This document shows, one piece after another, positions 786 to 54,445 of a DNA stretch of 64,000 nt. The notes under the pieces are model-generated. The model made no database searches. It was not told the origin of the DNA and saw nothing but the letters and a program-made list of their open reading frames with translations. Position 1 is the stretch's first letter. The number at the start of each line of letters is the position of its first letter. Position numbers and translations under genes: made by a program. The stretch is from assembly GCA_024679065.1 (NCBI GenBank), contig JAGIQG010000006.1:124124001-124188000 (forward strand), given 5' to 3'. The DNA comes from Sphyrna mokarran. Its lineage: Eukaryota.

Positions 786-867
786 ATTCAACTCATCTAT
801 GTGTTGCCATTCTAATCAATAATTTATAAACTGTCTGTGCTGATATGTGTGCTATTGGAGACCAGAA

Positions 868-966
868 CACCTCATTTGCCTGACGAAAGACATAGAGCTG
901 AAAAGCTTATGAGTTTACTATCAAATAAATTGGTTGGATTTAAAACTGATGTTGCCAGACTTCTTT
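868..966 (+). mobile_element. Solo degenerate copy of the hammerhead-bearing PLE-type terminal repeat
   Basis: CCTGACGAAAG..GAAAAGCT..AAATAAATTGGTTGGATTTAAAACTGATGTTG aligns by eye with the arms at 9378-9461. Confidence 0.6.
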
Positions 967-969
967 CTT

Positions 970-3224: not shown

Positions 3225-3440
3225 TTGTTAAGCACTTTGCAAAACTGAAGTAGATTATTAAAAACTGCTATATCTTTATTCTACTCATTTGCAATCTGCT
3301 TCTGGCGAGGTGCGAATGCACACTTTTGGCTCTCTTTCTGCTGTTCCCCATTGAGATATTTATTTTCCAAGGATAATGTGTCCTCCCTATTTTTCCTAAC
3401 TGAATGTGCTACTTCACATTTATTGACGTTAAATAAAACT

Positions 3441-5433
3441 TTGGAACCTTGGTGTACGAAAAAAGTTAATTCGCTGGTTAAAAGGAAGAAGGAGGCTTAT
3501 GTCAGGATGAGGCTTGAAGGCTCGGTTAGTGCAATGGATAGCTATAAATTAGCCAGGAGGGAGCTAAAGAGTGAGTTGAGGAGAGCTAAGAGGGGACATG
3601 AGAAGACTCTGGCTGATTAGGATTAAGGAGAATCCTAAAGCTTTCTTTAGATATGTTAAGAATAGAAGATTGGTTAGGGCAAGATTAGGGCCTGTCACAG
3701 ACAGCAGTGGGAAGTTGTGCGTGGAGCCTGAAGAGATTGGAGAGGCACTGAACAAATATTTCTCTTCGGTATTCATGCAGGGAGATGTAAATGTAGTTGT
3801 GGAGAACACTGGGATACAGGATTGCAAACTGGAAAGTATTGAAGTAGATAAGGAGGATGTGCTAGATATTCTTGAGGGTTTGAAGTTAGATAAGTCCCCT
3901 GGGTCGGACGGGATTTACCCTAGGATTCTCTGGGAGGCAAGAGAGGCGATTGCAGAGCCTCTGGCTCTGACCTTCAGGTCGTCGTTGGTTACGGGTGTGG
4001 TTCCGGAGGACTGGAGGATAGCGAATGTGGTCCCATTGTTCAAGAAGGGGAAGAGAGACGTTCCAGGGAATTATAGGCCAGTGAGTCTTACTTCTGTTGT
4101 GGGCAAAGTATTGGAGAGAATTATTAGGGATAGGATTTATAGTTATTTAGAGAGAAATGAATTGATTGGGGATAGTCAGCATGGATTTGTGAAGGGTAGG
4201 TCGTGCCTTACTAACCTCATTGAGTTTTTTGAAAAAGTGACTAAAGAGGTGGATGGGGGGTAAGGCGGTTGATGTGGTATATATGGACTTTAGTAAGGCG
4301 TTTGATAAGGTGGCCCATGGAAGACTTCTGCAGAAAGTGCAGATGTATGGGATAGAGGGTGATTTAGCTAATTGGATTAGGAATTGGCTAGCAGATAGAA
4401 GACAGAGGGTGGTGGTTGATGGGAGATATTCATCGTGGAGGTCGGTTACAAGTGGTGTACCTCAGGGGTCTGTTTTGGGGCCCCTGCTGTTTGTAATTTT
4501 TATAAATGATCTGGATGAGGGTATTGAAGGATGGATTAGTAAATTTGTGGATGACACTAAAGTCGGTGGAGTGGTAGATAGTGAAGAGGGGTGTTCTAGT
4601 TTGCAGAGAGACTTGGACAAGTTGCAGAGCTGGGCCGAGAGGTGGCAAATGGAGTTTTAATGTGGAAAAGTGTGAGGTAATTCACTTTGGCAGGAATAAC
4701 AAATGTGTAGAGTATAGGGCTAATGGTAGGACTCTTAATAGTGTTGATGAACAGCGGGATCTTGGTGTATGTGTGCATAGATCCCTGAAAGTTGGCAATC
4801 AAGTCGATAAGGTTGTTAAGAAGGCATACGGAGTCTTAGCTTTTATTGGTAGGGGGATTGAATTTCGGAGCCGAAACGTCATGTTGCAACTGTACAAAAC
4901 TCTAGTGCGGCTGCACTTGGAGTATTGTGTGCAGTTCTGGTCCCCACATTATAAGAAAGATGTGGAGGCATTGGAGAGGGTACAGAGGAGGTTTACCAGG
5001 ATGTTGCCGGGTATGGAGGGCAGGTCTTATGAAGAGAGGCTGAGGGATTTGAGGTTGTTTTCGTTAGAAAGGAGGCGGCTAAGAGGGGACCTTATCGAAA
5101 CATATGATTAGAGGTTTAGATAGGGTGGACAGTGATAGCCTTTTTCCTAGGATGGAGAAAGCTAGCACGAGGGGACACAGCTTTAACTTAAGGGGTGATA
5201 GTTATAGGACGGATATCAGAGGTAGGTTCTTTACCAGAGGGTGGTTAGGGAGTGGAATGCCCTGCCTGCGGCAGTTGTCGATGCGCCAAGTTTGGTGGCG
5301 TTTAAGAGGTTAGTTGATAAGTTCATGGAAGAGAAGGGAATGGTTTAGTTTGGAGGGTCATTGCTTTTTTCATAATTGGTCGGTGCAACATCGAAGGCCG
5401 AAGGGCCTGTTCTGCGCTGTAATGTTCTATGTT
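3441..5433 (+). mobile_element. 5'-truncated CR1-clade LINE (ORF2 reverse transcriptase, frameshifted)
   Basis: [83 protein letters not shown] over four overlapping ORFs; CR1-type 3' end TGTTCTATGTT. Confidence 0.95.
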
Positions 5434-8240: not shown

Positions 8241-9045
8241 TGGATACTGGATACAGTTTTCCAAATTTGATGCATTGGTCATGTATAAAGACAAGTTGCT
8301 GAGCTATTTTAAATTGGATGGTTCGATTACCTAATGCTCTATTTGCTTTAGCAAATAAACCTCTGCTTATCACCATTAGTGTCACACATCAGGCAACTGA
8401 GCCGGATGCAAGGAATACAATATTTGCACGCTGTTCTCAAATCATCCCAACCCCATTTCTACAAGAAATACAAGTCTTTGAGTTTTTTTGAATGACTCAG
8501 TTTTTAAATTTAGAAAGTTAACAGCAACAGTGTCAAAATCCCTTTCTCTCTCAACTGATTTTAATTCTGCATGATATAACATGTTTAAACATTAAGGGGA
8601 GTGTGGGGGGAAGATTGAGGAAGGGAAGCAGAGTTGAGGTCACAATCGAATCAGTTATGTTTTTACTGAATGGTGGGGCAGGCTCACAGAGCCAAGTGAC
8701 TCATCATGCTCCTGTTTTTTAGGTTAAGAATGACCATTAGGAGAAATGCATGATGCAGCAATAAAAACTGCCATGAATTTGACTCGGAGACACAGGTTTA
8801 AATACAGCTCAGTCCATCTGAATGAGAGGGCCTGATTTTGCATTAATTGAGATTCTCATCCAGAATTCAGGGTAGCTGTTTCCAAAAAGGGAGAAACAAA
8901 AACTGCACTGCTACAACGAGGCTTTGAAATAAGCAGTTAGGCTTACCCTTTGAGGCAAAGATGTGGAGATTCTTGTGTTGGACTAGGATGGGCATAGTAA
9001 GAACTTTTACAACACCAGGTTAAAGTCCAACAGGCTTATTTGGAA

Positions 9046-9082
9046 TCACGAGCTTTCAGAGCACTGCTCCTTCATCAGGTGA
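9046..9082 (-). ncRNA. Minimal type-I hammerhead ribozyme motif
   Basis: UCAC-CUGAUGA-A-GGAGC-AGU-GCUCU-GAAAGCU-C-GUGA: intact core, helices I and II, palindromic AGCU in place of helix III. Confidence 0.7.
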
Positions 9083-9377
9083 GTGGAAAAGTACGTTTCA
9101 CAAACACAGCATATATAGACAAAGGCACAATTGCAAGATAATGGCTGGAAAACAAGTCTTTACAGTAATCAAATCTTCACAGATACAGACAGTACGAGTG
9201 GAAAGAGGGATAATCGCAGGTTAAAGAAGTGCGAATTGTCTCAAGGCAGGAAAGTTAATAAGATTTTGCAAGCCTAGGTCAAATAGTGGAGGTTACATGT
9301 AGTCACACATTCCAAATATTATCTTGCAATTGTATCTCTGTCGATATATGTCATATTTGTGAAGCCTACTTCTCCAC

Positions 9378-9413
9378 TCACCTGATGAAGAACAGTGCTC
9401 CGAAAGCTCGTGA
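9378..9413 (+). ncRNA. Minimal hammerhead ribozyme motif (helix II damaged)
   Basis: UCAC-CUGAUGA-AGAACAGUGCUCC-GAAAGCU-C-GUGA. Confidence 0.55.
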
Positions 9414-9624
9414 TTCCAAATAAACCTCTTGGGCTTTAACCTTGTGTTGTGAGGCTTCTTGCTTTGAGGCAAGTAAAAGCAATCTCAGTCTGCATCTCTT
9501 AGATGCAACAATTTTTGCATGCTAACAACAGATTCCAAAGGTACTCAAGAATTGTGCCTTGCCTTTCACAATACAGAGATCCATCCAAATGTCTCTCTTT
9601 CCCTTCATTTCCCAGCTTCATAAT

Positions 9625-9780
9625 ACTGAAAGCTGTGCTGGTTAGGTGGATTGGCCATGCTAAATTCTCCCTCAGTGTATCCAAACAGGCACAGGAGGGT
9701 GGCGACTGGGGGATTTTCGCAATAAATTCATTGCAGTGTTAATGCAAGCCTACTTGTGACAATAATAAAATAAATAAAAG
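9625..9780 (+). mobile_element. HE1-like SINE, tail B (5'-truncated)
   Basis: Ends TTGCAGTGTTAATGCAAGCCTACTTGTGACAATAATAAA. Confidence 0.8.
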
Positions 9781-21220: not shown

Positions 21221-21454
21221 GTAAGAAATCTCACAGGTTAAAGTCCAACGGGTTTATTTGGTAGTAAACGCCACTAGCTTTCGAAGCGCTGTTCCTTCGT
21301 CAGGTGAGTGGGGAGTTCTGATCACAAGCAGGTCCCTCCTCATCTAACGAAGGAACAGCACTCCAAAAGCTAGTGGTGTTTACTATCAAATGAACCTGTT
21401 GGACTTTAACCTGGTGTTGTGAGACTTCTTACTGTGTTTACCCCAGTCCACATC
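21221..21454. mobile_element. Fold-back Penelope-derived element, copy 2
   Basis: Inverted arms approx. 21221-21310 and 21338-21433; no TSD visible. Confidence 0.75.
21271..21307 (-). ncRNA. Minimal hammerhead ribozyme motif
   Basis: UCAC-CUGACGA-A-GGAAC-AGC-GCUUC-GAAAGCU-A-GUGG. Confidence 0.62.
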
Positions 21455-22139
21455 ATGGCTTCCTATCAATTTATCCTTTTCATATTTGTGATACTTTCAA
21501 AAGTTTGCTTCATTTCTTTCTTGACAAGATTTGTACATTATCAAGCATTTGTAACTTTAATTTCTTAAACCTTATCAGATCCAGAAATTGCCTGCACCAC
21601 TAATCCTTATTTTTGAGTCATAACCTCTGTTTAAGTACATCTTGTTAATGCAGCACATTTCTCAACTGAGTTCCAACACTTCCACTCAATGCTAATCTCT
21701 GCACTTTTCAGCCTTTGGCAGTCTCACTTTGTATGCTCTTTATTGTTTGGTTTGTATTTTAGTCCATTTTTCAAATCTTTCAAGGAATAAACGAATGAAC
21801 TCAGGAGGCATCATATCTTTATACATTATCCTCCTATTGTCCTGGTTCACTCGCCTTCTTCAGTCATCGCGTAGTGTTTTACTTTTGTGGGATAATTCCT
21901 CTAGAAACAGTCCAGCTAAAGTTGGACCTTAAAGTGTCTAAGTAATCAGGGAAGCAAACCTGCTTATCTTTTCAAAGTAGTTTTCTAGAGTAAATCTAGA
22001 AGTTTTGAAACTGGTGTAATATGATCTGGCATTTCAGAATCCTAGCAGATGATTTTGGAAAATGAATTCTATAATTACTAGATGATGCACTGATTGCAGG
22101 ACAGTTATTCAATGGCTTTGGAAATAATTAAGATTATTT

Positions 22140-53616: not shown

Positions 53617-53674
53617 CTGCAAAAGATTAGCATGCATCTCTATTAAAGTAACTAGAACTGTAAAATCAAACAAG

Positions 53675-53912
53675 ACATGGAGATGCCGGTGTTGGTCAAG
53701 GGTAAACACAGTAAGTCTCACAACATCAGGTTAAAGTCCTACAGGTTTATTTGGTAGCAAACACCACCAGCTTTTGGAGCGCTTGCTGCTCCTTCTACGT
53801 ATGCTCCTACTATGTCTTCATCACTCACCTGACGAAAGAGCAGCAAAAGGTCTGAAAGCTAGTGGTATTTGCTACCAAATAAACCAGTTGGACTTTAACC
53901 TGGTATTGTAAG
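53675..53912. mobile_element. Fold-back Penelope-derived element, copy 3, 12-bp TSD
   Basis: Inverted arms; AAATCAAACAAG at 53663-53674 and 53913-53924; hammerhead core at 53825-53865 (+). Confidence 0.8.
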
Positions 53913-54445
53913 AAATCAAACAAGCACAGGCAAGTCTTGTAACGGGAGAAACGCAGCTTCCATAAATAAGTTTTAATGATTATACTGTCATCTGAGCCCT
54001 GAAACAAGAGATTTCTTACGAAATGTTGGATATATATCTTAACAGCACAGAAGGTCAGAGATAAGTTAACTGATCTGAGCTTGGGTGGCAGAAGATGGGA
54101 CTTTTTTTTTTAAACAAGAATTCCTATCCTCTGCTTGGATGCTGATATATAATTCTCCCTTCCAATGATTTGCCAATCCGTGTTTGTGTCCTGAACTCAA
54201 GATTTACAAACATAATTTCTGACAAATGGGCCATTCGTCAGTGACCAAGATCTGGAATCCAGATTGCTTACGTCTTCTTGAAAACAACTGTGGGATCCCT
54301 TCTGCCATCCAAGCTTAATTTAGGGCAGACCAAACCAAAATGATACATCTCAAAAATTTGCATTTATGTTCTGATCCAGTGGAAAAGGTGCACTGGGGGT
54401 GCTTGGGATTCAGGAAAAATAAAGCAGTCAACTAAACAAATGTAC

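Follow-up and report, generated by a model that had tools for sequence, protein, structure and literature searches.

Genomic setting and layout of the insertion

The window, i.e. the whole 64-kb stretch of DNA that was analysed, carries exons of the ECM29 (ECPAS) gene on the minus strand, which were matched by Pfam at about 60.6, 32.3, 11.9, 10.4 and 9.8-9.9 kb, two of them below the curated cut-off. A further stretch near 7.0 kb gave no Pfam match and is, by its likeness, presumably the next exon. Exons of this proteasome adapter gene are spread across approximately 7000-60900 (minus strand). The insertion at 8948-9472 likely lies in an intron of ECM29/ECPAS and comprises the following features:

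8948-8958, no strand: left copy of the 11-bp target-site duplication (exact match)
8959-8997, minus strand: 3' tail of 38-39 nt, on the left arm only (alignment of the arms); runs on in other copies
8998-9152, minus strand: left arm, portion duplicated in the right arm (arm alignment)
9046-9082, minus strand: minimal type I hammerhead motif, near intact (core pattern and folding)
9153-9307, minus strand: unpaired centre, upstream portion of the same repeat, belonging to the left arm only (repeat-level depth in public runs, contigs)
9308-9461, plus strand: right arm, inverted, shorter at both ends, without tail (arm alignment)
9378-9413, plus strand: further hammerhead motif with an intact core and a damaged helix II (core pattern and folding)
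9462-9472, no strand: right copy of the target-site duplication (exact match)

The duplication CTTTGAGGCAA is exact, does not extend further on either side and occurs only twice in the whole window, its two copies bracketing the insertion as claimed in the first-pass annotation. In a sliding edge test, which required a shared 11-mer at most 5 nt from both of two edges 503 nt apart, this locus was the sole match among 63,200 positions.

The 503 bp between the duplications consist of two inverted arms with their 3' ends pointing outwards. The local alignment of 9009-9150 with 9310-9451 gave 121 identities in 142 positions, and the end-to-end alignment of 8998-9150 with 9310-9461 gave 127 in 153 columns, the differences being 19 transitions, six transversions and one gap; the imperfect inverted arms reported earlier are hence 83-85% alike. 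Read on the minus strand, left arm and centre extend from about 9307 down to 8959. The right arm, read on the plus strand, begins at 9308-9310 and ends at 9461; its letters at 9308-9313 agree with the majority letters of the repeat at 9147-9152. A tail on one arm had been described correctly, whereas the shortfall of the other arm is 38-39 nt and not about 35 nt, a figure obtained only if the alignment is continued into the duplication.

In other copies, as seen in public runs, the tail sequence continues behind 9460. The tail also holds the 3' strand (8984-8976) of a 9-bp stem; the partner strand, 9032-9024, is located upstream of the point at which the tail-less arm ends. The two arm end points flank this 3' strand, one on each side.

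The copy at 8948-9472 contains no ORF and at most the last codons of one. The first 85 nt of the centre look, in our estimation, like the end of an RT+GIY-YIG ORF. A 30-residue peptide from the centre (9313-9224, with X at a stop) had no match in Pfam, and its single match elsewhere, a repetitive unrelated protein, was rejected as a chance hit.

Hammerhead motifs

Both arms contain the succession UCAC-CUGAUGA-A-helix II-GAAA-GC-UC-GUGA, i.e. the core elements and the UCAC/GUGA helix I that had been claimed for each of them. CUGANGA, GAAA, NUH, the extra base after A9 and the palindromic 15.2-16.2 positions are all present in both arms. The window has four complete cores that include a helix I, and each of them falls within the repeat family of this insertion. 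The left motif has a helix I of 4 bp and a helix II of 5 bp with a G.U at its base, followed by GAAA-GC-UC, and its cut is predicted to fall between 9050 and 9049. Folded alone, it forms helix I and the 5-bp helix II; the right motif has lost one G in helix II and gave no hammerhead fold. The G10.1-C11.1 pair is a G.U in the left arm and disrupted by the lost G in the right arm. In other copies the place 9058 (position 11.1) is a C in 37% (public run X1) and 72% (X2) of the depth.

Since the folding energies of the single arms were no better than those of shuffles (z -1.8 to +0.85), folding alone provides no evidence of a ribozyme. The match to a hammerhead covariance model that had been proposed as a check failed to appear: Rfam gave no match at the gathering cut-off over the whole window, and four weak matches, none of them a hammerhead, over 8900-9520 at E values up to 10. 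Helix cells were paired in 83% of cases on six decayed arms compared with 27-40% in slid controls. The covariation score, calculated from these six decayed arms only, was 0.296 (shuffled 0.277 +/- 0.028), a value that 122 of 500 shuffles also reached.

The hammerheads are likely passengers of the terminal repeat. Since they are located on opposite strands, they could not form the tandem dimer required by minimal hammerheads. The left, better motif would lie in the sense of the host transcript; no effect on the host is expected because a minimal hammerhead on its own showed no activity in the test published in PMC4209133.

Abundance and insertion status in public runs

Four of the 21 listed public runs were compared over 8640-9660, leaving out the 17 with small word shares. 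In X1 the arm reached a depth of 3.4 million compared with 18 in the flank, an approximately 1e5-fold excess that does not represent a true copy number. The centre was likewise found at repeat-level depth in all four runs, and contigs of other copies extend from the arm into it (e.g. X1 record 4, 9032-9225), so that the centre is upstream sequence of the same element. Its 155 nt do not represent a neutral loop, since other copies have them colinear with the left arm.

All of the 15 joints listed of 638 connect 9075-9087 to 9390-9403, at many different positions, and represent short fold-backs with variable centres. The centre junction at 9300-9320 is spanned by the locus's own contig alone among the 32 pieces listed of more than 135,000. 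Taken with the abundance of the repeat, the variable centres argue for independent truncated insertions and against one fixed non-autonomous family or a MITE.

Private changes relative to the family majority were detected in each arm among the 40 of 186 places listed (e.g. 9035 in the left and 9428 in the right arm). Due to the many private changes in the tail of this copy, the depth step between 8955-8989 and 8990-9024 is unusable as a measure of tail frequency.

A second organism has the same insertion, since contigs of run X10 cover the left junction (8640-9022, 41 differences, depth 2) and the right junction (9434-9625, depth 2, with 28 letters only within the arm). X2, which reaches 12 letters into the insert, probably carries it as well. 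An empty site was not seen: none of the 15 joints listed of 638 skips across the insert, and X12 has no flank cover. As an old and decayed insertion the single locus matters little.

Further copies in the window

A profile built from six arms detected three fold-backs and one decayed single arm in the window. Besides the insertion at 8948-9472 these are:

832-968, plus strand: decayed single arm of the same family, without detected partner (profile search, E 1.7e-14)
21222-21455, no strand: second fold-back, other subfamily, tail on the right arm (ends approximate)
53663-53924, no strand: third fold-back of 238 bp with an exact 12-bp duplication (duplication search and profile)

Head-to-head inverted arms thus occur at three of the four loci of the family. 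The second and third fold-backs have one complete hammerhead core each and belong to a subfamily distinct from that of 8948-9472: the variable core base and the base at the cut site are changed, and helix I contains a wobble. Both arms share one subfamily at all three fold-backs, and the 11- and 12-bp duplications at the first and third loci are unrelated sequences. The earlier statement that the same architecture recurs three times in 64 kb is true of the fold-back shape only: no duplication was found around the second fold-back, and the other two loci represent a different subfamily with a single complete core each.

The left end of the second fold-back adjoins a broken repeat, which we label SINE-like by assumption, and seems to have been lost by deletion into this repeat (21200-21225/21440-21460). 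Its tail shows a 15-nt internal deletion and continues into ATG GCT, possibly the start of a putative ORF.

In the third fold-back (53675-53912) the tail is present on the left arm only. This arm lacks the CUGACG box, whereas the tail-less arm has it. The centre consists of about 28 nt of filler (53797-53825) holding a 7-nt local repeat; these 7 nt also stand at the end of the adjacent arm, so that the filler may resemble templated end-joining.

Probable affiliation with Penelope-like elements

The insertion at 8948-9472 is very probably a truncated insertion of the Penelope-like element (PLE) type, most likely an ordinary dead copy with a layout already described for PLEs. It has the hammerhead-bearing terminal repeat, the inverted 5'-truncated neighbour copy and a tail of 38-39 nt at one end; a one-end tail is also found at the third locus. 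The duplications are near 10 bp and variable, with 11 and 12 bp at two of the three fold-backs and none at the remaining one. The PLE reading of the first-pass annotation fits every structural feature testable here, but no RT+GIY-YIG ORF was tied to the repeat. A search with a 23-26-nt arm pattern found no loci in metagenome, prokaryote and viral contigs and provided no link to RT or GIY-YIG.

Fold-back layouts of this kind are already on record for PLEs (PMC8557442, in the text and the legend of Fig. 2; PMC3846280; PMC4209133). PMC8557442 describes PLE copies as 5'-truncated, with an adjacent inverted truncated copy and often a 30-40-bp tail at one end. In PMC3846280 inverted pLTRs are bracketed by duplications of 8, 9 and 10 bp, with an optional 31-bp tail, and the pLTR carries a TATA motif together with an initiator-like one. 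PMC8969392 counts inverted pLTRs and short extensions among the routine features of PLEs, and new PLE insertions have a median length of 128 bp (PMC9977147). Compared with the EN+ PLE unit of PMC8557442 and PMC3846280, the present copy shares the head-to-head arrangement of a truncated and a shorter inverted copy, the one-end tail, the duplication of about 10 bp and the TATA and initiator-like motifs, but lacks an ORF.

The motifs also resemble the metazoan PLE hammerheads of PMC4209133, where the minimal hammerhead is defined, in the type I core, the extra base between 9 and 10.1, the 4-bp helix I, the palindromic 15.2-16.2, the lack of helix III and the occurrence as pairs on opposite strands 100-700 bp apart. 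Here, helix II has 5 bp with a G.U at the base (left) or a deletion (right).

For the anole PLE enzyme, cutting of both strands and extension from both were shown in vitro; the tail lies between two internal start sites of the RT, and insertion proceeds without need for hammerhead cleavage (PMC11167929). As in Anolis Poseidon PAc (PMC11167929), two end points close to an AC-rich stem delimit the tail. In our copy about 110 nt separate the hammerhead from the distal end downstream of it (9070 to 8959), and in PAc an RT start lies 111-118 nt after the start of stem II. However, the PAc ORF starts at helix II, whereas the ATG in the core of our copy meets a stop after nine codons and is missing from the other subfamily.

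Non-LTR retrozymes (bioRxiv 10.64898/2026.07.22.740005) are similarly non-coding, hammerhead-bearing and PLE-related. This identity was rejected since retrozymes are head-to-tail tandem units, whereas the arms here are inverted and on opposite strands. A literature search outside the repeat databases and most subscription journals found no description of the repeat family at 8948-9472 or its 5' end cluster.

Repeat annotation may easily misfile such PLE stubs as MITEs or unknown repeats. Furthermore, for the inverted ends of PLEs self-priming has been proposed (PMC3846280), and the cutting and extension of two strands has been seen in vitro (PMC11167929); a family so abundant, with duplication-bounded fold-backs, could settle their origin by tabulation.

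Origin of the fold-back arrangement

We consider two-ended priming the probable, though by no means certain, route to the fold-back. The element's enzyme would nick both strands 11 bp apart, and a separate cDNA would be primed from each nick. The first cDNA would start at the distal internal site, include the tail and reach a length of about 350 nt, the second would start 38-39 nt further upstream, lack the tail and have a length of about 153 nt. Host repair may then join the two truncated cDNA ends head to head, and gap filling would yield the 11-bp duplication. In LINE-1 twin priming, both target strands likewise prime cDNA, and an inversion arises inside one duplication; there, however, the inverted sequence stems from another stretch of the RNA, whereas here both arms contain one and the same 152 nt. 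Two-ended priming is already implied by PMC11167929 (both strands cut and extended, two start sites).

The strongest competitor, which we regard as unlikely but deserving attention, assumes the same PLE and a single priming, after which the cDNA would snap back at a short microhomology and copy itself, leaving the centre as uncopied loop. It fits the first locus exactly, where the tailed arm is longer and the right arm is nested within it; due to this nesting the first locus alone cannot separate the two routes. The shared subfamily of both arms at all three loci also counts for snap-back, and PMC3846280 favours self-priming for such junctions. At the third locus, however, the distribution of tail and CUGACG box implies that neither arm is a plain copy of the other, and since each arm has unique sequence inside an intact 12-bp duplication, this locus favours two primings. 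The centre of the third fold-back could nevertheless have been lost after insertion, as with palindromes. The arm that bears the tail at the second locus is at the same time the shorter one upstream, which speaks against snap-back although the left end of this locus looks deleted.

Besides two-ended priming, the first-pass annotation had offered a non-autonomous ribozyme-bearing family mobilised by a PLE enzyme. Such a dedicated fold-back family would be transcribed as one unit, with the PLE enzyme acting in trans. Short forms are indeed very abundant, the depth upstream of 9088 being about 1-5% of that at 9063; the second and third fold-backs are similar in length (about 234 and 238 bp), and non-autonomous PLE derivatives are known (PMC8557442, PMC9977147). 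Nevertheless, such a family seems improbable. Arm lengths and centres are unlike one another at all three fold-backs, and the centres vary among the 15 joints listed of 638 as well. The spanning of the 9300-9320 junction by the locus's own contig alone, among the pieces listed, and the same fold-back shape in two subfamilies point in the same direction, and a transcribed perfect hairpin would presumably be a poor template. The family is also unsupported because a single transcript can hardly have yielded both arms of a locus, and because the centre consists of ordinary sequence from the upstream part of the element. Of the two suggestions, two-ended priming is retained as the preferred, putative mechanism.

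Two unrelated events, i.e. a single truncated copy followed by an inverted duplication or a neighbouring second insertion, could account for the arm divergence of about 17% but are very improbable, since a single exact 11-bp duplication brackets both arms, the private changes in each arm are as expected of decay since a common origin, and the fold-back shape recurs. A MITE of DNA transposon origin, with long terminal inverted repeats that resemble hammerheads by chance, would be short, high-copy and flanked by a duplication with inverted arms as here, yet is hardly credible: the fixed ends and fixed duplication of transposon TIRs were not seen (ends unequal by 38-39 nt, duplications of 11 and 12 bp), the centres vary, a single arm exists at 832-968 and none of the hammerhead core positions is missing.

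A possible RNA start in the left arm

A further feature was located in the left arm:

9082-9117, minus strand: putative promoter and RNA start with TATA-like box and initiator-like TCCACT, assigned by position

The TATA-like box TATATATG is located at 9117-9110 and TCCACT at 9087-9082, with its A at 9084; we take TCCACT to match the initiator consensus. In the public runs, loose ends and fold-back joints cluster at 9075-9087. Among the 24 loose-end rows listed of 1,958, nine end behind 9082-9087, in three of the four runs and mostly with low agreement, but none of the six listed for X2. The first loose letter behind 9084 is a C in all three rows concerned, which would correspond to the additional G left when an RNA cap is copied. 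The depth at 9088 amounts to about 1% of the depth at 9063.

These ends are hints that most copies are complete run-offs at the RNA 5' end instead of random truncations. Tentatively, and with the odds somewhat against it, reverse transcription may begin at two internal sites, one 87 nt and the other 125 nt downstream of 9084, and proceed to the capped 5' end, once per nicked strand, and thereby mass-produce ribozyme fold-backs of 210-240 bp. Run-offs 87 and 125 nt long would give fold-backs of about 210-240 bp, like the second and third loci. Against this reading, three private mismatches of this copy at 9088-9094 can break alignments, the subfamilies differ upstream, a G as first loose letter was impossible by construction, and only two of the seven arms in the window start near 9084. 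The TATA-less promoter of the Drosophila element (PMC2377424) was also counted against it. If the run-off reading were true, fold-backs would be made from only the first 125 nt of the element's transcript, and approximately 1e5 copies would provide a natural data set on two-ended priming versus self-priming in PLEs.

Other repeats in the window

A second Penelope-like family seems to have left its 3' end, now decayed, at 60-800, with coding pieces in three frames (67-305) whose likeness to an endonuclease is our assumption. Pfam, Atlas and homologue searches with these pieces gave no match, and the decayed repeat at 156-275 led to no PLE proteins. Three more copies of the downstream repeat in 60-800 are located near 35.6, 51.0 and 57.7 kb. 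Furthermore, a fairly intact LINE fragment with RVT_1 matches in overlapping frames was detected at 3250-5110 (plus strand), and the many SINE-like repeats in both orientations account for most other inverted pairs in the window.
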